Positions 42,878 to 64,000 of a DNA stretch of 64,000 nt are shown in pieces. The DNA comes from Catajapyx aquilonaris (Eukaryota), in the NCBI GenBank assembly GCA_000934665.2, contig JYFJ02001506.1, forward strand, positions 1 through 64,000. Direction: 5' to 3'. Numbering within the stretch: position 1 is the stretch's first letter; each line of letters opens with the position of its first letter. The notes under the pieces are model-generated. The model made no database searches, had not been told where the DNA came from, and was given only the letters and a program-made list of their open reading frames with translations. A program made the position numbers and the translations under genes.

Positions 42878-45800
42878 GTTTGTGGTTTACACTATTACTT
42901 CCTGATTACACACTAAGGGCTGGTTGTACTTGAAATAAGCCACTGCTTATGACGAAATCATAATTACAAGTTGTTCGCAATAAATTCCGAACGCTCCCAG
43001 TATATCGAATGTCGTTGTGCGCAGGAAGCCACCGACGCCAACTGCTGGATATTCAACGACACCCGGTCCACCGACAGTGTGTGGGACGCCTTTTCCATGC
43101 AACGCGAGCTGACTGAACTCCGTGTGAACCTCCGTCCTGACGGTTCCCTCCGGTTCGTCCCTACCCGTGCCCTACGATACCTCCACAAGCTGATCCTGGT
43201 GGAGGTCCAGTACGCCAGTATCCCCAGCATCGGTCCTTACGCCTTCGCCAACCTGACCAGCCTGGAGGAGATTGTCTTCTCCAGGAACCAAATAGTCCAG
43301 CTGCGATCTCACGCCTTCGCAGCTCTGCCTAACCTCAGTACTTTGACTCTTGGGGAGAATCGCATCGCCGAGCTGCATCGTAATGTCTTCGTGCAGCTGC
43401 CCAGTCTCCGGAAGCTATATATTGACCGGAATAACATCAGCATCGTCCACGACCGCGCCTTTGTCCACCTGCACGCCCTGGAGGAGCTGGAACTCTTCGG
43501 AAACCAGCTGGCTGTTATCACCAAGGATACCTTCGCAGGTATGTTCTCAGCAGGGGGGAGATGCGCTGCTATATTTTTAAATTGTCACTGGACATTTAGG
43601 TTCGACGTACGGTTCTTATTACTGAATCAACATAGAGAGCAGAGGCGAAACGGTCCCGGCGAGTAAACTATTTCATTCAGCCAACACCGCGTGTTTGTTT
43701 TCTTCCCTCGGTTTCCGTCGTTTGCTACATGCATATGGCCCGAGCCCAACTCGCATTATTGCTCTTCTTCCGCATGTCCATCCCAGTGGGGGATCCATCT
43801 GCCCGAAACGACCGCCTATAAACGCATTCCTGTGGGGTCACACAGACATGTGGGTATATGATATACCAGAAGGGAATGGAGAGCATTTTCTGTTCGTTGG
43901 CTTGTGAGATATGCGGAGTTTTAGCCTATTCCCTCTCGACTGCCAAAGCATGCTTTGGCAGTCACACGTACAGGTAATTACTTTTTAAAATATGCATATA
44001 TTAAAAAGTAATTACCGGTACGTGTGAATTTCAAATAAAAATGTGAAGGTCGCAGCTATCAATTTTGCTAGTCTGTACATACCGTACACATCTGGGTACC
44101 CTGAAAAATTCAGTATTCTCGTCGAGTCATGAAACCGGTCGTAAATAGAAGCCCGGTCAAGTGTATTCCAAAACTAGACTTCTGCATGCATCACACCTAA
44201 GTATAGTGCTCAGACAAAAAGCTGCACCGCACATATAGACTATATACGACCGGCTGCCCCGAAACCACATAGACACGGCAAAGTTTCATGCCACAATATC
44301 CAGAGAATTTCATCAAGCAAATCCAGTAGGGGTCCTGATGCATAATGCATCTTCAGAAATGAAAAACGCATTTGTGAGACCCAGGAAATGGAAAATAACG
44401 TTACAATATTTTGGGCGAGTGGCTTCCGCATGTTTTTTTCTCTCTCTCTTACTTCTACCATCTTTCTGTATAGCTTGAGCAACATGGTCCAAGTTGAAGG
44501 AACCGGGTGGGGAAAAAAGGTAGGCAAAGATTTCCATTAATTGCGAGAGCAGCCAGGCGATGAGTGTAGAGAGCCAAGATGAGATTTTTGGCATCTGGGA
44601 AGCTGGCTGAGTGTGTTTGGATTGAAGGCTGCATGTTGCTGGAGGTGAATGATCCTCACTTCCTCATTCTATCTTCTGGGTACAGTACCTATGCATCATA
44701 CACCGCAAGTATAGTCAGGCGTTCGGCCAGCAAAATGTTTATAACAGCTTTGTGCTTCTGTACAGTACCTACATTGAACTGAGCTATAGTTTAGGGTTGA
44801 CGGCCCAACCAGATGGCTACTCAATCCGACCAGTATATCCCTGATTCCGGAACACGACTCGTTCCTGAAAAGTAATGTAATTGTCTTTTTCAGGTCTGCA
44901 CAAGCTGCGTCGACTAGACCTGCGCCAGAACCGCCTGGAAATGCTGGGGGAGGATACTTTCACTGAAATGAAGAGCCTGGAAGAGCTCGACCTAATGGAG
45001 AACAGCATCAAATACATATCTGAGCGAGCTCTAATGGGCCTCCCTAACCTGATGCTGCTCAACCTCAACGACAACAAACTGACTGTTTTGGGCAGAGATG
45101 TCTTCTCAGATCTGGATAAGCTCAACTACCTAGACCTGCGCAACAATGTTCTGGAGACTATCATCCAGCCTACATTCCAGCCCATCATGCACAACCTGCG
45201 CAACGTCTCCATGTCTCTCTATTTGGAAGGTGGGTCACGTGCATATTTTGCAAGCAATTTATGATAATGGTCACGGCAGGTTCACGTTCACAAAAACAAC
45301 GCTTCATTCGCGTCATAAAGCCAACTGGGCAATTCACAGTCGCATTTAGCCATCACATGTAGCTTGTAGCTGTCTCCGTCCCGGTTTATACTTACACATT
45401 AGGTAGCCATTGTACTCCAAAATAGGTTCAGCGATTAGCCCTATCCAGTCCTTTTATCTATGAAGGCATGCTCTGGAGAGTCATTGTGCCTCCCTACTGT
45501 AATGCCGAGATAAGAATGAAATAATTGGATAGCTGAGAGACTCGTTGGTTGTTTCTCCGCGCCACTAGACTGTGACACAGCCCCAAGCAACACTCCTCAT
45601 AAAAACCAAAACCCGCCGTACATTCCGGCCCGCCAGCCATCCCATCGTTGAATTTCTAATGGACACCGGTACCCTACATGTACATAATTGACTGTCCTCC
45701 CGTCTCACTAGACAGTAACAAACCGACCGGATTAACCAATTCCCCCCCCCCCCCNCCCCCCCCCCCCTGGAAAATTTTCAAACTGGAGTGGGTGGAGACG

Positions 45801-48800
45801 ACCATTCTTCACGTGTGATCTTGACACTCGCGCGACTCATATTAATTGGCATATTACAGCACCCCCACATTAGGCCTTCCAGCACACACGCATTGCGGCT
45901 GGATAATTACACGCTCTTTCCTGACGTAACATATTTATTTCCAGAGATTATGCGTGTGCTGGCTCCCTCTAAAAGGCTGCTCACGTGGCCCATTATTTTG
46001 ACACTAGCTTCCTAAATGGAGACGAAGGAAAGGAGAAATAACCTCCACTTGCTGGACCGCTGCCCAACTAGCTTCCTTCCAAGGAAAAGGAGGAGAAGAA
46101 GAAAAAAATTGGATAGGATTGGTCTTGTCATCGGGAGGGAGTCCGTAACCGTGATTTATAGGGATTGAATCTACGGTACCCGGGGTTTCTTGTTGATTTC
46201 TGTGCTAGATCACTTGTGATAAATTGAGTGCAACTCTTTTGCCCGGAACCTAGCTCCGCATTAGGGATGAGCTGCACAAAGGCCGCCTGAGAGTGGTAGC
46301 AAAACTTTTCTTATACTGGGGGGGGGNAGGGGGGGGGGGGGGCGCAGCATACTACTTGACGATCACGTCCGGATCAATGAGAAACAGCCCTTTTTACCTT
46401 CGGATAGGATTTCGGGAACGGGGATTTACTCGCAAATACGCCAATCGCCTACAGAACGTGTTTAAAGAGAAATTGGGCGGTCAATTCCCATCATTTTACC
46501 CTCCTATGCCAATATGGTAAAGAATACCAAAATTCGCCACAATTTGTTCCCTTTTCAAGTGAGAATGTAGCTGCTACTTTGGCTTCTACCAGCTCATTTG
46601 AAAAGGAACAGGAATACCAATTGTGCTCATATTGGCTGACAAATGCAATCCAACATCATTCGGTACACCCTGTATTCACCTTGAAAACAATCCAGCCCAT
46701 ATTTTACACCAAAAAATTGTACCTCACCTGGTCGAACTCCGAACTTCAGAAATGAATAACACAAAGATAACTCTCCCTCCTGAACGTCCACCATCGTTAG
46801 AGCTGCAGCGAATAGATCTAGAGCCCCCCTACATCAACCCAATAACNNCAAAAAAAAAAACGGCAATTTTCCTCCGAAAATGAAGAAATAGTCTCCCCCC
46901 GAGAAAAAGAAAGATGGGAGGGAAAGTGTGAGAAATGAAGCATTTTGGGTGAATTGGCGCGAGATAATGACATGGGAAGACGTAGTAGTGGTGGGCCCAG
47001 TGATGAGGGCCAATAAATCGGCGCCTTCCGGATGAAGGCCTGCTTAATAATGGGAGCCAAGAACAAACGGCGCCGTGCACACTTTACCTTGCCGAATCTC
47101 TTCCTATACCTCTCTCACTGTCTGACTTGCCGTTCCCGCCAAAAGCGAATCGGATCCAGCGAGATTTGCAACTTGGACTCCATTAACTGGGAACGGTTTC
47201 ACTTCCCTTCGCAAGCCGCATCGTAATTTCACGGAAGGTTTATTGGGGATTTATGGGACAGGTTGACAGGCTCAAGTCAGCTATCTCGACTCTAGAACCG
47301 AGCCAAAGTCAGCTCACACATCACCTGGACTAATTAAACTGGGGACCGATATGAACCTTGGCACGAAATCCGTAGCGCTGAGGAAATTCCGATATCTCCC
47401 CCAGATTCTTAAAGAAACTTGCAACTAGGGCGTTCCACAGAACTGTATCTTTAATTAAAGTGCACGCCTTATACCTGTGAGGTCGGGGTATAGACGTCGC
47501 GTCGTGTTATTACACTGCGCCGGATAATCATGGCGCCATAAATCCCAGAAACTGCGAAACAGTTGTGATGTCCCACACTAGATGGCTGGGGTGTCTCGTG
47601 GTTGACCTGGAGGGAGACTTGAACTTGTATAACAGTCGGAGGTAGCCTTGGATGAGGCTAGGTTTAATAGGATTGCTCCCAAACTGTGTATATTATTGGA
47701 CTGAAATGACCTCGCGGGGTCTAGAGTGACGACCTAGAAGTTTGCATAATAAGAGGGCATTCCCTCTGACCTGACGACCTGTAACTGCTACTGGGGAACC
47801 TGGTTTATTCAGTCAAAGCAGCTGTTCCGCTCTTCGGTACACAACTACTCCACAAAGTTACAGCACCTTCTCTTCGATTGCACTTAAATGGTGGCCTGTC
47901 GGAGTTTTCCGTTGAAAGATTTGGGCCACGTGACTTGAACGAGAGACGAAAATCAATTAGGGAATTGTGGAGCAGCATGTGGGGGTGATATATGGAGGGC
48001 ACGTGTGGCTCCTTCCGGCGTCTTAAGCCAGCACTTCCTACGATCGTTAGGTGGAAATGGGACATCCAATGCGATTGAACCAGAAAACGAAGGAAGAAGG
48101 GTTATGGCCTAGTGCACGGAAGAAAAGGTCCAGGCTCTCTCTCACACACACACAAAAAACAGGTGGCCCCGCCCTGCTTCGACATTACTGTTGGAAATGA
48201 CAAGGGTGGGGTTTTACAGAACCTCTGCTCATCCACAAAAAGGTCTGCTTTACATGGGATAGCCGTCAAACTATCGCGTCTGACAGTCAACTCGTTAATG
48301 GTGAAATATCGTTCCAATTTGGCTGCTGAGACAATGACGTGCGTGGAATGTGTTATATGACGCCTCCATGGGATTGATTAAACTGACCCTGGCACTAGGC
48401 GTACCCTGCGCTTGAAAGTGACGTAAGAGCTAAATACATTTACCTGGTAAGTTGTCTTGGACTAGCCTGAGAGCATGCAAGGCCTCGTTGGAAGGACTGG
48501 TTGAAGGGGCAAGAGATGGAAGGATGCGACTGTAAATAAGAAAAATAAAGTTTAAGTAAAACATTTGGTGCAAGTAAGTCAGGAATGAGAAATTAATGCA
48601 CTGCATAATTCAACATGATCTATTGTTTAACCACGTGCTAAATACCGGCCCGAGACAAGCGTTAGGCTTACTAAAGCTCAATCTATTATTTTGCATGGAG
48701 TTAATGTGGACTAACTTGTAAGACGAAATTCTCCACATTACGCTTTCCATAGAACCACATTTGACCAGCTAGCGAATATTCAGAATAGGTTATGCGTTCT

Positions 48801-49606
48801 ATGCCGTGAACTGGTTAAAAGAAAGGAAGAGAGTGTGAGTGGCACTGCGCGGAGATTATCCTGCGCTTGGAGCAACTCTTCTAACACATCGTCTTGCTGG
48901 TTGCTGCCAAATAGGATATCTACTAATCGAATGTTGCTTTAGCACTACATTTCGACGTCACTGCTTGTCTTTAAAAAACATGAGAGTACTTTAATATATA
49001 TTTGCATAACAAATTTGAATTAATATCTATCTTCCTCGAACAGGCAACAGCTTTGTGTGTGACTGCCGACTGGCATGGATGCACTCCCTGTGGAACGAGA
49101 CGCACGAGCGCGTCAAGTCCGTCCTGGAGCAACTGACATGCTTCCTCGACGACGACAAGAGAAACCAGCACCTGAATATGCCCCACCGGGATGCTCCCGA
49201 CACCTCCGACGCCATCGCCCTCCCGATCTCAGAGGACTACCAAGATCTCACTCCAAAATCCATGATGGTCAGCACCAAGTCCAAGGATTCCCCGTCTCCC
49301 AGGGGCCCCAGCAACCCTCCTCAACACCCAGGTCCTGGTACAGTCAAGCACCTATTTGAGATTCCGGTGGAGCAACTCCCATGCCCAGAAAAGTACACTA
49401 GTCGGGAATCCCAGGAGGACGAGAGGCAGCAACAGGACAAGATGGCACCCGAGTTGGACAACAAGATGGCTGATGAGAAGGTGGTTCCTCAGCCGGTCCA
49501 TCCGGACTACAACAACGACGGCACCTACTGGAGTCGTGGCACCGGCAACAAGGAGTGCTGCCTACTTTTGTTTTCTGCGTTCCTGCTACTGCTTCTGAGG
49601 TTGTGA
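42662..49606 (+). CDS. Con: Connectin-like LRR cell-adhesion protein, spliced CDS join(42662..42877,43025..43538,44894..45229,49044..49606), 542 aa
   Basis: All three introns are GT..AG with matching phases (0,1,1); total 1629 nt = 542 aa + TGA. Has a signal peptide, an N-terminal Cys cap (NICQ..VYCYC..ANCW.F), about 10 LRRs, an LRRCT (LEGNSFVCDCRLAWM..LTC..HLFEIPVEQLPC) and a hydrophobic C-terminal tail. Connectin assignment is from recognition of these motifs, not a database search. Confidence 0.9.
43025..43538 (+). CDS. Con: Connectin-like coding exon 2 (N-cap end + about 6 LRRs)
   Basis: gcgcAG|GAA acceptor, EATDANCWIF..., ~24-aa LRR periodicity (LxxLxLxxNxI), donor cag|GTATGT at 43539, phase 1; GC3-rich codons. 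Confidence 0.95.
43938..44026. repeat. Two abutting palindromes (26 bp perfect; 64 bp with two mismatched pairs) in a connectin intron
   Basis: gactgccaaagcatgctttggcagtc (43938-43963) and cacacgtac...atatgcatat...gtacgtgtg (43963-44026). Confidence 0.9.
44894..45229 (+). CDS. Con: Connectin-like coding exon 3 (4 LRRs)
   Basis: ttgtctttttcAG acceptor, LHKLRRLDLRQNRLEML... LRRs, donor aag|GTGGGT at 45230, phase 1 at both ends. Confidence 0.95.
49044..49606 (+). CDS. Con: Connectin-like last coding exon (LRRCT, Pro/acidic linker, GPI-type hydrophobic tail)
   Basis: cttcctcgaacAG acceptor gives G-N-S-F-V-C-D-C; ends SRGTGNKECCLLLFSAFLLLLLRL-TGA with no cytoplasmic tail. Confidence 0.92.
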
Positions 49607-52240: not shown

Positions 52241-53748
52241 ACGCACTCTTGAACGGCCATCGGAGTCCAATTATTATTTTCGTCTTACCCCCCCAAAAAA
52301 AACATATGTAGGTTAACCCCTCCGGAACGGGTGTGCAATCAAAAGGGTGGGGGTAATCACTACATTCCCGCAGTCATGCGATTCAAACTTGTTCACGTCC
52401 GTGTTTTCCTTTTATTATGCTGTTTTTAAAGCTTTTTTTTGTGTGTGTGTGTGCCCTAGAAGCAAACAGTAGCGACATTCTGCAACTATTTCCTGTTGGC
52501 GTTCATTACGGTCAAAAGTGTACCAGCACGACAACCTGCATTTACCATCGTCATAGTATATGGCTCACAGAATTGGCCTTCCAGCCAAGCGTGGTGGTTT
52601 CCGCGTCTCATTTTTCCAGTGACGCTGGAGAAGACATCATTCCCTTATGAATTTATTCAGGAGCTCCAATAATCGCTTTATACACCTTACATGAGCCGGA
52701 AAAATAACATCATACACACGAAAGAGTGAAAGGTTTCATTCATTTTTTTTTTGGTATAGGTGAAATAACCTTCGGGAAGGTTTTCAGCTGATGTCGCACT
52801 CCAGTGACCACAAAAATTATTTGCACGTTACGAGAGCCCTGTAATAAGACGTATAAATCTTGCAGTCTTTCAGGTGACAAGCAATTTGCACGCAATTTCT
52901 TGTGACGCATGAGCCTGAACAACAGGTGGTTCACTATGAAGTGTCTACATCGATAAGAGGAAGAGAATTTCGCTACATAAAAAATGAAGCATCAAAGCCT
53001 GAACCCTGATCAAGTTATTGCAAAAATTTACCATAATTCGGCAATTAAAGTTCAGATATTTTCGCACGCTTATAATTAGTTATTCGAATGATCGCTCACG
53101 TCTCATTTCAAAAGAATGTCCACACACCTGTACTTTCTATTCAAAGTAGTAAGTACCGTGCATTAGTTTACTGCCCCCATTGTCGTAAAACCTCCCCACG
53201 TTCCCATTTGAAATACCTTTTATAGTACAGTCTGCACCACACACTCTGTTCAACTAAAATGCACCATTTTTTATTATTATTTCATTTGTCCTGTAATGTC
53301 CCTATTAGGGACTTTAAGGGGGGGAAATGCACCATATAATATTACCCAGAAAAACGGCACTTGATATAGCATGCCCTACGAATCCCACGCGAAAAAAAAC
53401 ACCCTAATGAAGAAAACCAGTTACAAAACATTTGCCCTAATCAAGCATATCTTGCAGTACATAAACTACATAAAAAGCAGGTCCGTGCCTTCCGTTCCGT
53501 TTCCGCAGACCAGATTGGCGAGAAATTGCTCGTGCCGTTCCATCCCATACCCCTTCTCCAATGAGCGAGGTCGTCCTTGGTCACCCCCGGCCTTCCCCCA
53601 GGCCTCTACATTATAATACTTCTATACGAAGACTAATTACAGCATTCCTGATTTGACTCTTGGCTACCACCTGGTCACCATCACCAGTGGTTGGTGTGGG
53701 CAACCAACGTGGTAGGCGCCATTGAACCTCTTCTACTTGGACGCTCTT

Positions 53749-53754
53749 TCAGTT
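53749..53754 (+). promoter_or_regulatory. Initiator-like TCAGTT (or a splice acceptor) upstream of Rh exon A
   Basis: Matches the arthropod Inr consensus TCAKTY, ~35 nt before the ATG. The same bases (ctctttcAG) also fit a 3' splice site. Confidence 0.35.
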
Positions 53755-53785
53755 CAGTGCGGATCAGGCATCAGGATACAAGACC

Positions 53786-53960
53786 ATGGCGGTGTTCAAG
53801 ATGCGTTGGCCCGAATCTCTTCATGTGCCGATCATCATAGCGATGCAGATTTTCTTCGTCATTATTTTTGGCGTGGGTGTCGATTATGATGATTCAGCCA
53901 ATTCGCTCAAGAACACTGGGAAGCCACCGGAAGAGAACGCCATTCATTCCTACTATCCAA
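53786..53960 (+). CDS. Rh50: Rh-family ammonium transporter, first coding exon variant A (partial gene)
   Basis: accATGG Kozak context; MAVFK...MQIFFVIIFGVGVDYDDSAN...IHSYYP matches Rh TM1 and loop 1; donor ccaa|GTGAGT, phase 1, at the position where Rh exon 1 normally ends (before FQDVHVM). Confidence 0.82.
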
Positions 53961-55861
53961 GTGAGTGGTTTGTAGATAAGGAATAAAAATGTTTTCTAGG
54001 AGGTCACACATTCGTGTTTAGACAAACAAGGGAAGAAACTAATTTGCATATTATTGTCAATACCGGCCAGTCCTTGTAACGTCCGATTGCGTAACGGAGG
54101 AGTCTCTAGCAAATTAATGTTTCTCTTTTTCCTGGTGTGTTCTGAATATATTGTACTTCCCTGATGTTCAGGTGATCCATTTTGCGTAAGATGTCTGCTG
54201 CTATAGGGTCGGTTCCGTATCTTCGCGATTTAGACAGTGCAGGTCACAGTACTGTACAGGTCCTTAAAATTCGCCATGTCTCGAGTCAATCGATCACCAA
54301 GTCACCGTCCCATGTTACTAATGCAATTGGCTCACACTGTGGGACTTTTTTATAAATAAGCTAAACCCGCGCAGCAAGGTCAACAAGTAGCAGAACACCG
54401 ATACTGGCAATGAATTGTTTAATTATTTACTCCAGAACGTTTACACCATTGGTGCAAGTAAGCAGATTATGCCATCGCAATCTTTGTACGCATCACCGAG
54501 GCAGGTTATGCGTTGTGCACTACCCCTCTGCAGAATCTCAAAGGGTAATTAACCTTCACACTCGATTGTCCCTGCTTCGAGCAATCCACATCTCATCCTA
54601 ATTACGAAACATGATTACTAGGAAACATAGGATATGCAGTAAACATATTATTAATCAAGTGTCAACAATATAGCTTTGTTAATGGTAAGGAAAAAACTGC
54701 ATACGATGCATTTCGCAATGGCCATACCAACAGCTATAAAATGATTGATAGCAACAGGACAATCAACACTTACTATGAAAGAGTTAACTATGCAGAGGGA
54801 GATATTCCGAACAAAAGCATCTAAAAACTATCGAATTACGTATTTCAGTATGTTAATTACACCCCCCTTGCTTCACATCCGTAGTGACACCCTCTAATCA
54901 TTTTGCGCACGCGTAATCTGCAACTATGAATTCACTACCGTATCGCAATTTTCACGATCCGACCTTCGCCTTTTTGGTTCTCGCCCCTCTTCTTTTATCA
55001 TAATTTGTGACAGCTTCGTGATAACTCCATTTACAATATTTTTGCCACTACAAGCCAGGCTTCGGTTTTGTAATACTCGATTATGCAGTGAAAGGGCCAT
55101 GCATTGAAGTGAATATGTAAATATACTATGTATATAATTATTACACGATCTGCCCATTTAAATGGCAGTTGTCCAAATATTGTTCAACTTGTAATTTACC
55201 TTAAACTATTTTTGTCACGATCATTGCTGTTCCCAACTAAACAGGGGCATGAAAAAATGACCCACAAGTGTCCATCACAATAATATGCTAATTATGCTAA
55301 AGTGCGGAAACCCTTAGCGTTAAGAATAATTACAATGCACATAGCAAAAAGGCGCATCATTATCAATTTCCTTCATCAGTCATGAACTTACACTTTCCAA
55401 CTTGGTTACTTTGACCTCTCTCTAGCGACGAATATTCCCACGGCCGGATAGACTCCCTATTGCATAAATTATCTCAATTCTTAGTAATACGTAACCCGGA
55501 CACCAGCCGTGACCCCAAAATCTGCTCCATATTGGCCACTCAAATGAATAGGCCCTCCCATCTAGTCTGTGTCATTCAATAGGTGCCCATTAATATTGCC
55601 TCCCGGGTGTACTCAGTGACATATTTAGGTTTTTGCCGCCCCTAGGCATAGCCTTATCTGCCCCCCCCCCCNNNCCCCTTCCCCCACTCCTGGCTGCTTT
55701 TTAGGTCCGAGATTGGGGAAATTCCGAAATTTGCGGATTTCAAGGCCAAATATCTCGAAAATGGTTATTTCAAATCATTTGAAATTTTGGTCATGGATAC
55801 TCCTACTAGTACTTAGCAAAATCCAATGAATTTCATATTGGGGTTTATACACTTTTATGCC

Positions 55862-56010
55862 GCTCCAAGGTGAATCGGCCGATGCCCAGACAAGTAAGGG
55901 CGAAACTCACCTGTAGATCCTGCACAGATCCCCCCTGTCCTATAGGGGGGAAGGGTGCACGAGACTTTCGCCCTTACTGGTCTCGGGCATTGGGCGATTC
56001 ATCTTGGGGC
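55862..56010. mobile_element. Small MITE-like inverted-repeat element (~150 bp) between Rh exons A and B
   Basis: 55862-55905 is an imperfect reverse complement of 55966-56010 (gtaagggcgaaa / tttcgcccttac), with additional inner tgcac/gtgca and C-run/G-run pairing. Confidence 0.65.
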
Positions 56011-57162
56011 TCAACAGGCCGTGGGAAAACTGTACTGAAATTGGAAAGATGTCATGAGTCCTATATACTGTAGTGTTCCGCATAAAGAATAACCTACCGC
56101 GAACACTATGGGTACAGATACGAATAGGCAGTAGGCCTATACTAAAATCTCCATAGACCACGACCCTTGCAACAGGAGTATGTTATTCATTAGATTTTAA
56201 AGTTATTCAATAAAACACGCCCTCGCGTCATCACCCATCAGCTGCGTCATGCTGTTGTCTTATTGATTACTGTGTGACTATTTTCTGTCAGCCGTTTTCA
56301 GTAAGTACTGTGTATACACGATAAATCAGACAGTAGGCTAATTAGCCTGGAGCCTAATCTAAAGTCAACATGAGCAGGCTCAGATATGATAATAGCATAT
56401 TGCTTGTCGGGTAGGATAATACCCCAGAATATAAACTAACATTAGCAACAGATATTTTTCCCCCATTCCACTGTCATAATGTTGATTCAACAGTGTAGAT
56501 TATTGGCCCATTACTTTTTACACGCGCACTAAAAGAATCCACCTATAGGAAGAGTGTAGAACCCTCTTGACACGACCTTATACAGGCAGAGTGTTGGGAC
56601 AATCGTGCTAAGAGTATAGGAATAGAATTAGCATAGCTCTAAAAGCAGAACAAGGACACCAATACAAATTTTAATTTAGCAAGGAAGAAGGGACAGATAA
56701 CTGATTGTGTGTTCAGATTGATTTTTTTTCGAGTCACTTATGATAAGTATAGGTACTCGTAAGTGAGAATCCAATGCGTAAGCATGTATTTTCACTTCAT
56801 ATTTATAATACTGGGCAAATCTTATATCGATGCTGACTTCGTCGAGGAAAATACCCTGACAATGTTATTCCTTTGATGCAGTGGCTATATACGTTGTTTT
56901 CCATTTATCCCGACGGGCTACATACGCCAGCACATGTATCCGTTTAAAAGAGATTAGATCTTGAAGAAGGCAGTGAATTTTGCATTCATGAGCCGGGTGA
57001 AGTTCAGAAACTGGGGTCGCGATTAAATCACCCAGGTCGCCTGGGAATAGTACCTTTATTTGTGTCTGCATGAAAAGAGCTTGAATACACCTTGAAAAGG
57101 TCAAAGAGGGGGGCGCATTCGACACACTTGGAACATGATTGCAGAAGAGACAAGGGGATATG

Positions 57163-57170
57163 TATATATA
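57163..57170 (+). promoter_or_regulatory. TATA-like box upstream of Rh exon B
   Basis: TATATATA ~90 nt upstream of the ATG. Confidence 0.3.
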
Positions 57171-57256
57171 CGAGAGAGGTTGTCCCTCGCTACCACATTG
57201 TGGCATGTCCTGCTGAAGAAAGGTAATCGTCTGAGATTTGGCGAAGGAGAAGAAGG

Positions 57257-57482
57257 ATGGATTACGGCAGGAGGAGCAGGTATCAGTTCCTCGTGCCCCT
57301 CAGCGATGACCGCCTTCTATTCGGGGGTCTTCTGATGTTTCTGCAAATAGCACTCCTATGCCTATTTGCCGTTAACGTTGCATACGATGTTGAGGCTGAT
57401 GCCAGCATATGGGAGAACACGGCGGACAAGAGTATTGGAGGATACGACCATAGTTGGAATGATATGACCAGAGTGTACCCAA
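57257..57482 (+). CDS. Rh50: Rh-family ammonium transporter, first coding exon variant B (partial gene)
   Basis: aggATGG start with an in-frame stop upstream at 57224; LQIALLCLFAVNVAYDVEADAS...MTRVYP; donor ccaa|GTAAGA, phase 1. Confidence 0.8.
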
Positions 57483-58601
57483 GTAAGAGTATCATACTAC
57501 CATAGAGTACGTACATGCCAGTAATAGGAGAGTGAGGGCCAATATATTTTGCAATTGAATGGAATCACTAACGGATATTCATGTCTTAGCTTCTTGTAGA
57601 GCTAGTTTCACCACTGCAGGTGTATGCTATGTATACAGTATAGAGTGTTGTAGTATGAGTATGTGTTAGTCATTTACTTGTTGTTGAAGGTCCCGCAACC
57701 TATAATTTATGCATATAGGACACAAACAGAGGAGACTAATTTGACTTCAAAATACAGATGCGGTGGCTCTTCAGTTGAAATGTGCTGGAACTGAATGACC
57801 CACACCTATACGTGCGTGATTGACAACACAATAAATAAAGAGACAACGCGGTCACAATGGGCATGCATAAGTCAATTACATTATGCTCAATTAGCTATTA
57901 CTAATCAAGGTTATACTGGCTCTATCTTTCCAGCTTTTTATCACTTCCGTTAAGTAACACCCCACAACTATTACATAATAGTGTTGGTAGTATACTATAC
58001 ATTATTGCATTTGTTTATGGTGTTACTTTGGTTATATACACGACACAAAACGGGTTCGGTGAATATGATCAACAGGTAGAAAGAGTTTAAAAATTGATGT
58101 TCCACTTCAGTGCAACTAACATATTAAGTAAAGAGTAATTCCAAGCAGAATCATACCGTGCAAGTGTAATTTGATTAACGGATCTCTGGTTCGTTGGAAA
58201 GGACTAACAGGCACATCTGAATCCGAATGTGTATGCGGAAGAGTCCTATAATTAAGTGGTGATATATTTGAGGTTTTCATGGCCTACTGCATGAACGCAA
58301 TTTAAGCAGAAAATCTGATTATGTCGGATTATGTATTGTGTGTGAATATGCATAATCGGAGATTTTCCCCTAATTTGCTCCCATACAACTGGCCCTCAGT
58401 CTATATCTTAAAAGAGGGCTATAGAGCTCGTGTTCCCCATCCTGTCAATCCATGCTAAATGGGAATGAAATGTGAATGCCAATACACTATCTCCCAACGT
58501 ACACGTTGAGCCAAAATATTGTCCACATTGATAAAATAAATTGCACCAGTGATGCTGTACAATTTAATTGCGAAACACTAAAAAATGAAGCTTTCACTAG
58601 C

Positions 58602-58676
<75 letters not shown>
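58602..58676. repeat. (TAT)25 microsatellite
   Basis: Uninterrupted trinucleotide run. Confidence 0.97.
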
Positions 58677-58678
<2 letters not shown>

Positions 58679-58807
58679 CCTAAAACTGATTTTGTCTTCT
58701 ATGTGGTACGCTACTCTCAGTTCTGGCCTACTGACTGGCAAAAGAAATAGAGTACGACTTATGATCGCATTTCACGGACCAATCAAAAAAATAACGACCG
58801 AGCAATC

Positions 58808-58893
58808 CAATTGAATCACTTTTTATAAGAAGGGAACAAGTCCAATAACTTTAAGTTGGACTTGTTCCCTTCTTATAAAAAGTGATTCAATTG
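58808..58893. repeat. Perfect inverted repeat, 38-bp arms, 10-nt loop
   Basis: caattgaatcactttttataagaagggaacaagtccaa-taactttaag-ttggacttgttcccttcttataaaaagtgattcaattg. Confidence 0.95.
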
Positions 58894-61474
58894 CAATAGA
58901 TTCGGGTGCATTCAATGTCAATGCCGTCATGGTCTTCGGAAGCGAGTGCGTGATAATGCCTGTCTCTGTGCATGATTGATGCCACGCAAGCAAGAGCAGG
59001 AGCTCGAATCAGGTCAAGAACTGAGGCCACGAATGTTTTTCCAAGCCGCTCTTAGCAGAAGTCGGCATGAGAGCCATAAATAATTCGATTGCCCCACCTC
59101 CCCTCTACATCCTTTCTCGATTAATATTCCTCCGGTACTAAACTCTTCGAGTGCCACCAGGTAGTTTCCTTTGCCAATAGTGCCTCATAGTTGTGCGGAC
59201 TCATTTGATCCAACTATCAGTTATGCTCGTGAATGTGCAGTCACGAGAGGGAAGGTAGCTATTACGTAGCATATGCTTGCTTATTGCTTATTTATTGCAA
59301 ATAACATGTTATTTTTTCTTGTCTCGACGCGACGCTTCCTTCCACATACATGCGATAGCGGTGTGATCAAAGAATTCTTTGACATCTTCCGACTGTCCTT
59401 GTGGAATATCGCGAGGAAGGAAGTGTCGAACCACTCGAAGCATAGGATGCTGTTGGTGTAAAAGATCAAGGTCTTGGACATATTCAGTGGGTCAGGTTCA
59501 TTTGTGTTGGCCTTGACTATAGTGTCAGAAAATCCACAGTATTTACATGACGCGTATTAGGATGTACTGTACGTGGAATACAGTATCACGTATTATCGGC
59601 TCCGCCTTGCTGACTAATCCTGTCTCCTAAGGTCAGCTGGACTGAATCGCGAATTGTATATATTTAAATATATTTCGCATGTAGTTGAAATTCTGCATAA
59701 CGCTTGCAATATTTATGCACCCACCATTATGCCAAAAATTTTGAGTTCTTGGACGCAAAAGTGCATTAACATTTATGCGAAGTGTGTTTACTCGTTATTT
59801 TGAAAATGGAAAGCAAGTACAGGCCTGTGCATGCGAAAATAATAGTAATTAATACATGCTCGTGTTTTTTTTGACACTTCATGCAATATATGTACAATAG
59901 AGAAAATACCAACTTCAACACTAGCCGTTTCCGAAATTCTGTGTTTTTCCCTTTCTGTTGAAATGGTGCTCATTTCCGGTGCGCGTTCCCGAAAACGATG
60001 GTGCAAGAAAAACCGTGAATATTGGGATTTATAATTGAAACAGGTAGTTTCCTGAAAATAAGTGCACACTAAAATCTTGCAGTGAGGCACGGCTAAATGG
60101 TTTTCTCCCCTGCACGGAAACTTATCACATGGTATATTACGAAGTTATCCAGCTTTTTTGTAGCACGAGACACGTCCATTTCCGGTCACTTTTCAAAACC
60201 AAATGTAGCCTAAATATGATATTACACCAGAATAACAATCACTGCTCACGGGTCATTTTTCCGAATCTGTAGCAATTATCTCATGCACTCAGCTTAATTT
60301 TTTATGCCACATTCACAAAATATTAGAGTCTGTCATTATGTACGGCACATAGTCCAGTGTGGCACGTATCGTATAATTCATTATCCCTACTTCATGCATG
60401 CTGAGCGTAAGCTTGCGATTCTTCATTGAAAGTCCTTCCACAGCCGTATATCCCCACGCCTTTATTAATCAACTCGTTTAGGGCCAATTGCGGCCAAATT
60501 CTCTCTCGTTAAGTATTTGACACACGTGGTACTGTTGCCATGGTTGACCTGCTCCCCCCACCAAATAAGTTTTTGTATGTGAAAAATTACACTTTCAAAG
60601 TTGAGCTCTTGAAAATTCTACAACCTGCTTCTGATCATGTAGCCATATCAATTGTCGTTGACCACTCTCCAGGGTCACTGCCCGACACAGTACATATGTT
60701 GCGCCTATTGCGCCTGTGTGGAAGAGTCAACTAAACATAAAAAAGGCATATCTATAATATATTATAGTAATTATTTGCAAAATATTAGGCTTGCAATTGC
60801 GTGTTATCCTGAGGTCGACATAAGTTACGCGCGACGATGGGGTAATAACACATTTCCAAGTGCATGACAATTGCCACTGTATAGGTTCAAAAAAGTGTAT
60901 TATTAACCTGTAATTAACTTGATATCACAGGAAGGAAGCCGTCATAATGACAGAAATGATAAATTGAAACTCTGACGTAGTCAATCTGTTGAACGCAGTC
61001 ATTGAATCAAAATTGTAACGTATAGTCTGGTTGTGTCAGCAAAAAAGTGACATTACTGCGTAGTTTAAGCCGTACTCGGTAGTCCGCCTGTTTTAATGCT
61101 GATAACAGTTATCCCTCTTGTTAGTGACCAGTTTTTTCGCGGAACACAATAGCAAACCAGATACTATTTCCGCAAAAATATAACTCCAATACTTTGAGCC
61201 GCATAACTCTTTGCTAGATTATCACTCCGATATCCAAAATTATATTAGAGACGAGTCATCAACATGGCGACAGTCTGCGTCTGAATTAGCAAAACTTGGC
61301 AGAACATCGTCGCCGTGCATGCGGTCGTGTATCCTTTCCTTACACAATATCAGACCTACGCCCACTACAGGACAACAACAACAAAAAATCGACGCCAAGT
61401 GTTGGTTGATTGGGTATACAACCATCCTCCAGTACAAAAAAAAAAAAAAACACCGGGGGGAGTTTGCCCACGAG

Positions 61475-61480
61475 TCAGTC
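61475..61480 (+). promoter_or_regulatory. Initiator-like TCAGTC upstream of Rh exon C
   Basis: TCAKTY match ~50 nt before the ATG. Confidence 0.3.
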
Positions 61481-61525
61481 ATGGAGTGAGAACCGCTGAA
61501 TAGTGACCAAGACCATTACAGTCGA

Positions 61526-62078
61526 ATGCATTCGACCCAGCCTGCGCCTCAGCAACGAAGCATCAGCATGGTCCTCAGTCGGTCCAGCACTGTGGATGAC
61601 ATCGAAGCAGGAGCAAGAAGAAGGGGACGACGACAACTGGAGATGGACACAGCCCAAAGGATGCAATTCGCCACCGTCATGTTGGTGGGACAACTGGGCT
61701 TGATGGTCCTCTTCGGTTTCTACGTCGACTATGATGTGGAGGCCCAACCATTCCTGCAGGTACCCGGACCCTCCCGGGTGGTGTCGCATGGACATCCTTC
61801 GACACAAATCCCGACTCGTCTCACCACTACCACGCAGCACAACATGCATCTAATGCTGCCCGATTTGCCTCCTGAGGAAGCATACGAGCCAGATCTAAGC
61901 CAGCAGGACATGTCTGACGAAGAACTGCTAAATATGCCTGATGTCATGCAGAAGAGAGCGGTGGACAATCCGCGTTTGTTCGGGTTCACTATTCCGATCG
62001 GATCTACCCATCCACCCGCGATACAGCAAGCGACAGCAGATGATGCTGCGTCAGTACCGTTTGGCATCACCTATGCTA
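61526..62078 (+). CDS. Rh50: Rh-family ammonium transporter, first coding exon variant C with long N-tail and expanded extracellular loop (partial gene)
   Basis: 184 open codons; GQLGLMVLFGFYVDYDVEA matches the Q-x6-F-x3-V-x-Y-D motif of variants A and B; ends GITYA with donor gcta|GTAAGT, phase 1. Confidence 0.75.
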
Positions 62079-62600
62079 GTAAGTCGAACATAGGTTGATT
62101 TTTGTACTGCACTGTTTGCGTTGGCGGACTGTTTGCGCCAACTTATTTACACGCTATGTTTGGTCAGCATGCTAATATGTCACACATTGCATCCACGTGC
62201 TCAAACTATCATGCGACGATGTCGATGGCTGTGTATTCAGAGTGTTTCAGAATTTAGCTCGCATCCGCGTATTGATGAAAATCTCGCCTACGGTCATTTC
62301 AAGTCGCTTCTGCCGGTCCATCTTCAAGTGTGACAGCCCGTTACGTATGCCTTTGGAAAGTTCATTTAATAGGTTTTCCAATGGTATACATAACTCGACG
62401 CCGAAGATGAGGCGGAGAAGGACAGCGATACGGATGAGCTCAGTTATGAAGCACGTATTTACGCCAATATTGTTTGCACATTTTGTTACGCTAGTGTCCA
62501 CCTGAGTCCACTGAATCAATAACACTCGAGTATTGACGTAATTATGTATCATAAATAAACTATATTATTATAAGGAGAGAAGGCTGTAGCCACCCCATAG

Positions 62601-62764
62601 CATCTCTGAGGTCCCGAGTTCGATCCTCGGATCGGAAAGAGAATTTTCTCATGCGGGAAAAGTTTTGATGGGTTCTCACCATGTTCGCGTGGATTTTCTC
62701 AGGCTTCTCTCGTTTCCTACCACTATCAAAATCCATTAGCAGAGCAGTGCTATTAAAGTCGGGT
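62601..62764 (+). mobile_element. tRNA-derived SINE with V-domain-like core
   Basis: B-box-like GAGTTCGATCC at 62616-62626, then gttctcaccatgttcgcgtggattttctcaggcttctctcgtttcctacca, resembling the V-SINE core. Homologous to 2916-3022 in reverse orientation. Confidence 0.65.
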
Positions 62765-63644
62765 CAGTTTATTAAATGGTAAATATTGTAGGGTTAGGCT
62801 AACGGCATACAAATGGACACTCACGTCCGTGGATCTGAACCATTACGGGCAAGTTGTATGATCGATAGTAAACCCAGAACAAGTGGTTGCTAAACCGTAT
62901 ATTATTCACGGAGGGTTAATCACTTATTCTGGATTCACTATCGATCACTCAACCTGCCCGATGTGTCACGTGGGGGGGGGGGGGNACCACATAATAATCG
63001 TTATCCCTAATGGACGAAAGGTCTTCACTGATAAACAACTCATTGAGACGTATTTGTTAGCCTGAGAAATATTGCATATGTCGGAGGCAAAAGTACCATA
63101 AATCATGAACAACAAGCTTATCCACGGTGGAAGGTACACGACCGCCTCCAAGGTGCACAATATACCGGTACTGTATATCCCCACTCCTCAAATAAGATAA
63201 TGGTTATACGTGACGTCACGGTTACGGCGGAATTGAATTATATTGAACACGCACGCTGCCGCATCACTTGGTCGGAAATATCGGCTAAACGGAACATGCT
63301 AGTAATATCGGATGTCCATGAACTAACGACATATTATAGTGGTGTAATAATCTTACATATGAAACTCGCTGAAGCGATTTAATACAGGATTAGCTGCCAG
63401 AAATATCGATAAAAACGCAGTGAATATACTCGGACACCATTCAAGTCCTGAGCGGAATTATGATTTAATATTTAGTCACAGCGATTACATTATTCTATGT
63501 CAGTTAGTGCTTGGGGACATCTGACAAACGTCACATTTTTCAATATTAGAACGCCCAGGGCCCGTTGTACGAACGTAAATGAACCGAAAATTTCCGATTA
63601 CATGTGTAGGCATTGACAATATTATGACTAAAGATTTTCTCTTA

Positions 63645-63715
63645 ATAAATAAATAAATAATAATAATAATAATAATGATGATAATGATAATAATAATAAT
63701 AATAATAATAATAAT
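63645..63715. repeat. (AAT)n microsatellite with AAAT and GAT interruptions
   Basis: Directly visible. Confidence 0.95.
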
Positions 63716-64000
63716 TTGGGTAGTGTGGACCTCCCAACTGAGGAGGTATTGCACGGGCCTTTGTTCTGTTTTAGGCATGTGTACAATGTGTACATACATT
63801 GGAACCTTGTTGCGAATCGGGCTGGGTGACTGCCGGGAGGGGCTGTGCAAGGTGCAAGTGCAATGTATGTAACGGTATATTTTGTGAACTCCCCGGGTGG
63901 ATCAGTATATCGGAGATTCCACCCAAGACGAAGCCAGAGACGACCCAACTCTGCACGATATGAAGGGGGGAGACACCGGGCAGGGATCGAGCCCGGGCGA

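Follow-up and report, generated by a model that had tools for sequence, protein, structure and literature searches.

Alternative first exons are a common gene architecture. The clustered protocadherin and UGT1A loci carry homologous first exons in tandem and in one orientation; every such exon probably has a promoter of its own and is joined by splicing to shared constant exons. Invertebrate Rh proteins have been studied as the products of single-product genes in work on ammonia excretion and sensing. Here, we report an analysis of a 64,000-nucleotide (nt) stretch of Catajapyx aquilonaris DNA (assembly GCA_000934665.2, contig JYFJ02001506.1, positions 1 to 64,000 of the forward strand; the window), in which three diverged copies of an Rh ammonium-transporter first coding exon (E1, E2, and E3) lie in tandem on the plus strand. 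We read them as alternative first coding exons of one Rh gene, joined to an exon 2 that we infer to be shared, and give this reading a probability of about 0.72.

Isoforms of an arthropod Rh gene have been described in Anopheles gambiae, where AgRh50a/b arise, according to the available part of the published account, by alternative splicing at the 3' end and are expressed in a tissue-specific manner (PMC4216128). A literature search covering titles and abstract openings, with most subscription journals outside its coverage, found no published account of alternative Rh first exons, and the 3'-end splicing of AgRh50 was the only alternative splicing of an arthropod Rh gene that it found in print. 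For the protein, the section consulted describes in RhCG a twelfth, N-terminal helix, which is named TM0 (PMC10794816, section 7).

The three copies, their splice donors, and the intron that follows the last of them are located as follows (positions are those of the window; a slash marks the exon boundary).

53786-53960, plus strand: E1, first-exon copy 1; ATG, 58 codons plus 1 nt, ending ...HSYYP then A/GTGAGT
53961-53966, plus strand: E1 splice donor GTGAGT, phase 1
57257-57482, plus strand: E2, first-exon copy 2; ATG, 75 codons plus 1 nt, ending ...WNDMTRVYP then A/GTAAGA
57483-57488, plus strand: E2 splice donor GTAAGA, phase 1
61526-62078, plus strand: E3, first-exon copy 3; ATG, 184 codons plus 1 nt, ending ...VPFGITYA then A/GTAAGT
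62079-62084, plus strand: E3 splice donor GTAAGT, phase 1
62085-64000, plus strand: start of the intron expected to lead to the shared exon 2; 1.9 kb without an Rh exon

E1 (translation, MAVFKMRWPESLHVPIIIAMQIFFVIIFGVGVDYDDSANSLKNTGKPPEENAIHSYYP) has a short N-terminal tail, a TM0 helix with Q21...F28...V32-x-Y34-D35, and a loop of 21 amino acids (aa), and ends in Y-Y-P plus A. E2 carries its TM0 with Q30 and YD at 43-44, followed by a 29-aa loop of the canonical 'EADAS...GG-x-D' type and the end V-Y-P plus A. E3 begins with a long basic tail, has TM0 with Q56 and YD at 69-70, and continues into a 112-aa loop rich in P, T, Q, D, and E before ending in T-Y-A plus A. The copies are separated by 3296 nt (E1-E2) and 4043 nt (E2-E3). 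Translation reproduced all of what an earlier sequence-only reading had given for these exons, namely their coordinates, the conserved Gln at residue 21, 30, or 56, the three loop lengths, the ends in phase 1, and gaps of 3.3 and 4.0 kb. No N-glycosylation sequons were seen by eye in the loops of E1, E2, or E3.

An in-frame stop lies 20 (E1), 10 (E2), and 12 (E3) codons upstream, and each ATG is the first one in frame thereafter; the three copies are therefore not internal exons that simply continue an upstream frame. In none of the 104 full-length relatives is the first-exon part as long as E3 (184 aa versus 42 to 171 aa; median, 60.5). Two further in-frame ATGs of E3, at codons 15 and 40, have a better Kozak context than its first ATG, and either could be the real start. 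A two-codon upstream open reading frame (ORF), ATG GAG TGA, was also noted at 61481-61489, 37 nt before the E3 start codon.

Membership in the Rh family was assessed with profiles and pairwise searches. A 40-column profile of the three exons, searched against 177,635 PDB sequences, aligned to the TM0 region of human RhCG (3hd6; residues 21-46; expectation value E, 9.7e-5), which was its only significant match (next, E of 1.4 and 2.3), and E2 alone aligned to residues 21-58 of the same structure (E, 0.011). Against 1.84 billion representatives, the profile gave 13 matches at E<=1e-3. Twelve of these were ORFs of 59-210 aa matched at the N terminus; the remaining one, a 2433-aa protein with 11 profile positions matched in 9 stretches, was set aside. 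After the loop, 10 of the 12 ORFs read Y-[PA]-S-[KEM], which is gene-caller read-through of the A/GT donor, because AGT AAG encodes S-K. A 16-sequence profile run against a library of 5.8 billion returned 31 matches, and PF00909 was present in all seven of those with at least 314 aa, including Rh proteins of Daphnia pulicaria and Lamellibrachia satsuma and an unnamed-product protein of Ridgeia piscesae.

BLASTP against the N termini of full-length Rh proteins placed E1 closest to Lingula anatina Rh type B (P0129; E, 7e-13; residues 16-58), with 97 N termini at E<1e-3, and E2 closest to Lineus longissimus Rh type B-like (P0072; E, 1e-11; residues 11-75), with 48. For E3, the best foreign match was P0005 (E, 6e-7), and 34 were found at E<1e-3, including a full-length Rh protein (P0022; 3e-6). 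These alignments reached the last exon residue in E1 and E2 and spanned the helix region in E3. A metagenome scan with a 6-sequence alignment returned a single locus (L001), an intronless 2144-nt record of a full-length Rh and not a genomic array; its product (P0017; 506 aa; PF00909, E of 6.7e-74) has the same N-terminal helix motif, followed by ...NYMP-M-FQDVHVM. Pfam assigned no family to E1, E2, or E3 alone, and a word-indexed search for longer proteins with E2 alone gave 33 candidates, none at E<=10. Together, the RhCG profile match, the PF00909 proteins matched at their N termini, and the BLASTP alignments to Rh N termini support the identity that had been proposed for the three copies: Rh first exons, predicted to encode the N-terminal tail, first helix, and outer loop 1 up to the phase-1 intron of the family.

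The helix itself lies outside the channel domain. The Pfam core domain (PF00909) of P0017 starts at residue 58, near the start of exon 2, and the first exon is therefore outside the Amt/Rh core. Homology to RhCG residues ~21-46 was present in all three copies, both in the profile match and in the alignments to full-length Rh N termini, and by this sequence homology E1, E2, and E3 are predicted to encode TM0, the Rh-specific helix at the trimer interface. Use of one or another of the three exons would exchange the cytoplasmic tail, TM0, and outer loop 1 while the pore stayed constant. Some crustacean Rh entries (P0061, P0068, and P0075; e.g., Panulirus ornatus isoform X2) start ~20 residues before MFQDVH, without TM0; judged from these entries, they may be further alternative or truncated 5' ends.

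The exon 1/exon 2 junction was examined in pairs of genomic ORFs and spliced proteins. In four such pairs (P0008/P0022, P0034/P0025, P0016/P0036, and P0038/P0039), the two sequences are identical or almost identical as far as Y-P or Y-A; from there the genomic ORF continues with SK... or CE..., whereas the spliced protein continues with MFQDVHVM or FFQDVHVM. Among the 104 full-length relatives, the residues before the junction are YP in 78 and YA in 9 (87/104 together), and the junction residue is Met in 77, which fits A/TG. All three exons end in Y-[PA] plus A/GTRAG and the four pairs agree, so the phase-1 intron that the sequence-only reading had placed at the end of Rh exon 1 stands. Human RHD exon 1 ends at c.148, also in phase 1. 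A 210-aa genomic ORF from another organism (P0011) contains an Rh first exon followed by a near-identical copy of the 3' half of that exon; the second copy starts 12 residues after the YYPSK read-through and has its own YYPSK. By its sequence, P0011 would fit a recent tandem duplication of part of exon 1, donor included, and it is possibly an early stage of a first-exon array.

No Rh gene body was found in the window. The exon 2 motif [FY]QD[VI][HQ] was absent from all frames of the whole 64 kb, and an exon 2 of the (M/S)-F-Q-D-V-H-V-M...G-F-G-F type was found neither in the 1.9 kb after E3 nor elsewhere in the window. Pfam was run on plus-strand ORFs of at least 28 aa from 53726 on, the rest of the window being covered by tblastn and motif scans, and 0 of the 109 ORFs (53726-64000) contained PF00909. 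When P0017 was compared with the whole window by tblastn (E<=50), the best two matches were E3 and E2, with E1 at E of 38, all three on query residues 1-48, and its body gave only scattered noise that crossed stop codons and lay on both strands. Motif scan, tblastn, and Pfam thus all came back empty for Rh exons 2 onward between or after E1, E2, and E3 within the window, as had been claimed from inspection, and no Rh constant exon separates the tandem same-strand copies, the arrangement that marks variable first exons. Rfam gave no match on the window.

The six frames of the whole window contain the helix motif Q-x6-F-x3-V-x-Y-[DE] three times, once each in E1, E2, and E3, against a mean of 0.017 in first-order Markov simulations (n=300; maximum, 1; any match in 5/300). 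A composite exon pattern (ATG, an open frame of 15-200 codons, TAY-[CC or GC]N, then A/GTRAG) had end positions on either strand at 53960, 57482, and 62078 only. A chance origin of the three exons is excluded.

The copies have diverged deeply. BLASTP of exon against exon gave E of 0.001, 8e-6 (E2 versus E3), and 0.001, with pairwise identity of 28-41% in aligned helix stretches of 29-38 residues, and no direct nucleotide-level repeat linking the three was found. Since the likeness is at the protein level only, without a DNA repeat, the exon duplications are old. A tree of the 104 N-terminal parts plus E1, E2, and E3 (65 columns, quick method) left 56/104 inner branches open; E1 stood apart from E2 and E3 without support, so the tree does not date the duplication. 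No fourth first exon was found by hmmsearch with a hidden Markov model of the three exons among 2199 ORFs of at least 20 aa, in which E1, E2, and E3 scored 80-82 bits. The next match, at 52357-52647 (12.4 bits), is hydrophobic but has neither Q nor YD and was dismissed as due to chance.

Two Rh isoforms of the damselfly Ischnura elegans offer the closest parallel. The entries 'ammonium transporter Rh type A' X4 (P0067, 489 aa) and X1 (P0069, 561 aa) are identical from MFMDVHVM to the C terminus, with unrelated N-terminal parts (up to the F-[QM]-D motif, 59 versus 131 residues, with VHP versus EYA at the end). As read from these protein models, Ischnura elegans has alternative Rh first exons, and they are a direct precedent in NCBI automated annotation. 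The suggestion that the organisation is new for Rh genes was accordingly overstated, as it is already present in public automated annotation. Like E1, E2, and E3, the Ischnura N-terminal parts each have their own start, tail, TM0, outer loop, and [HY]-[PA] end. The long one (X1) resembles E3 in its basic tail, long loop, and Y-A end, a likeness in architecture and not an established orthology. The shared body in Ischnura is read from protein isoforms and not from genomic exon order, whereas the window holds three copies and no body.

N termini and bodies were compared among 107 full-length Rh proteins. Of the 81 listed pairs whose bodies are at least 78% identical, only four had an N-terminal alignment score below 50, all others scoring at least 92. 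The four were Ischnura X1/X4, the firefly pair P0114/P0137 (body, 90%), P0132/P0137 (81%), and the cockroach pair P0053/P0092 (79%). The signature seen in Ischnura thus recurs between species in fireflies and in cockroaches, which lends support but does not amount to proof. The label 'isoform X' is also attached to many further invertebrate Rh entries.

Insect Rh N termini are of at least two types, which cut across body similarity: a long 'ADASD...GGFDQ...KYH' type, as in the mayfly P0058 and the firefly P0137, and a short-loop type. The proteins in this contrast are P0058, P0137, and P0053 versus P0057, P0067, P0092, P0114, P0132, and P0134. The distribution hints that alternative first exons may be widespread in insects.

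On the one-gene reading, the window would hold the 5' end of one Rh gene with three mutually exclusive first coding exons, each probably under its own promoter. Each first exon would supply the start codon, its own cytoplasmic tail, its own copy of TM0, and its own outer loop 1. The shared exon 2, beyond the 3' end of the window, would contribute its first two bases to the codon that the exon-final A begins; by analogy with relatives this codon would be A/TG (Met), followed by F-Q-D-V-H-V-M. Three isoforms would result, alike in their pore body and different in their N-terminal modules. We infer separate promoters, expression of all three exons, and functional differences between the isoforms; that isoforms might mix within Rh trimers is speculation. 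Each copy has kept its ATG, frame, helix motif, Y-P or Y-A, and a strong donor in the phase of the family despite deep divergence, which speaks for selection to keep every one of them usable as a spliced first exon and against dead duplicates. One gene is favoured because all copies have been maintained and because Ischnura elegans provides a precedent in the Rh family. Promoter-like words upstream of each start codon are listed as leads only.

53749-53759, plus strand: a pair of overlapping, initiator-like TCAGT words, 27-37 nt before the E1 ATG
57163-57170, plus strand: TATATATA, a possible TATA box, 87-94 nt upstream of the E2 ATG
61475-61479, plus strand: an initiator-like TCAGT word, 47-51 nt before the E3 ATG

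Several points weigh against one gene with a shared body, and the rival explanations draw on them. The window stops at 64000, 1922 nt past E3, and the shared exon 2 would have to lie beyond it; three downstream Rh bodies might be used by one exon each, or the 5' copies might be spliced to unrelated exons. Same-chromosome Rh paralogues occur in relatives, such as P0072/P0086 of Lineus longissimus and P0025/P0042 of Daphnia pulicaria, and the latter, two separate paralogues with 76% identity, show that tandem whole-gene duplication also occurs in the Rh family. The Ischnura precedent, moreover, is an automated annotation of another species, and the firefly and cockroach pairs compare different species, so that annotation choices or errors could explain them. 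Separate transcription units nevertheless appear unlikely: Pfam recognised no family in the plus-strand ORFs of at least 28 aa between E1, E2, and E3, tandem genes are rarely interleaved in such a way that each first intron extends over the other genes' first exons, and the Ischnura isoforms show that the Rh family has arrived at a shared body. Also on the unfavourable side, the splicing and expression of E1, E2, and E3 are predictions from genomic sequence, and the promoter-like words are at chance level, a 5-nt word being expected about once per kb. Perhaps, then, only one exon is used, most likely E3, which is nearest to the body, or E1, the others being dead relics of exon duplication; the E3 loop, longer than in any of the 104 relatives, and the weak Kozak context of the first E3 ATG would suit this. 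We consider it distinctly unlikely, as the copies are old (28-41% helix identity, no DNA repeat) and an old unconstrained copy is not expected to keep an ATG, a frame of 58-184 codons, the motif, Y-P or Y-A, and an in-phase GTRAG donor.

The last unfavourable point concerns identity. Neither E1 alone nor E3 alone had a significant PDB or Pfam match, and their assignment relies on the profile and on BLASTP against N termini gathered in the same analysis. A resemblance by chance, the segments not being Rh exons, is still extremely improbable given three motif matches where 0.017 were expected and a profile whose matches include RhCG, over the residues expected, and the N termini of full-length PF00909 proteins. 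The assembly itself could mislead if different Rh loci or haplotypes had been joined or gene bodies dropped, and two short runs of N are present (55672-55674 and 62986). Both runs, however, lie within homopolymer tracts, unlike scaffold gaps, the exons are far too diverged for haplotypes, and their common strand and similar spacing fit a real array; an artefact of this kind is very improbable.

Upstream of the Rh exons lies a multi-exon leucine-rich-repeat (LRR) gene on the plus strand (~42953-49603), with LRR_8 at 42953-43663 (E, 3.9e-30) and 44881-45261 (E, 6.4e-26). Its last long ORF (49019-49603) has a hydrophobic tail, and E1 lies in the space after it; the nearest Atlas clusters of the neighbouring LRR ORF are arthropod LRR proteins. 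A perfect 38-nt inverted repeat with a 10-nt spacer (58808-58893; hairpin or like a miniature inverted-repeat transposable element) was noted between E2 and E3. E3 is flanked by (ATT)n at 58602-58677 and (AAT)n at 63643-63715, ~73 nt each, in opposite orientation and ~5 kb apart.

If one Rh gene does make several N-terminal isoforms, antibodies, knock-downs, primers, and heterologous expression based on a single cDNA may catch only part of its products, and the isoforms would be a natural experiment on the roles of the Rh-specific helix and outer loop 1. The practical value of the window is modest, consisting of a three-exon example and a recognition rule (Q-x6-F-x5-Y-D ... Y-P plus A/GTRAG), and the architecture is already in the public annotation of at least one insect. 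A wider view, which we hold to be doubtful, is that the array of TM0 cassettes did not arise by local duplication but is ancient and conserved in the Rh genes of arthropods, perhaps of invertebrates more widely. Distinct exon types (canonical, with 'ADAS...GG-x-D...YYP'; short-loop; and 'YA', with a long tail and a long loop) would then have been kept for hundreds of millions of years, because TM0 at the trimer interface and outer loop 1 would set subunit assembly, targeting, or binding partners. Were this so, one gene would yield functionally different, tissue-specific ammonia channels, as vertebrates do with RhAG, RhBG, and RhCG.

The array of alternative first exons proposed here can be set beside three known systems. 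AgRh50 is likewise an arthropod Rh gene with isoforms, but the available part of its account describes no N-terminal variation (PMC4216128). In vertebrates, the TM0 module varies between paralogous genes (RhAG, RhBG, RhCG, and others), whereas here it seemingly varies by alternative exons of one gene. E1, E2, and E3 resemble the protocadherin and UGT1A loci in that homologous first exons follow one another in the same orientation; they differ in number, with three copies versus 9 to >50, and in extent, the variable part being one helix and a loop here and the whole ectodomain or substrate-binding half there.

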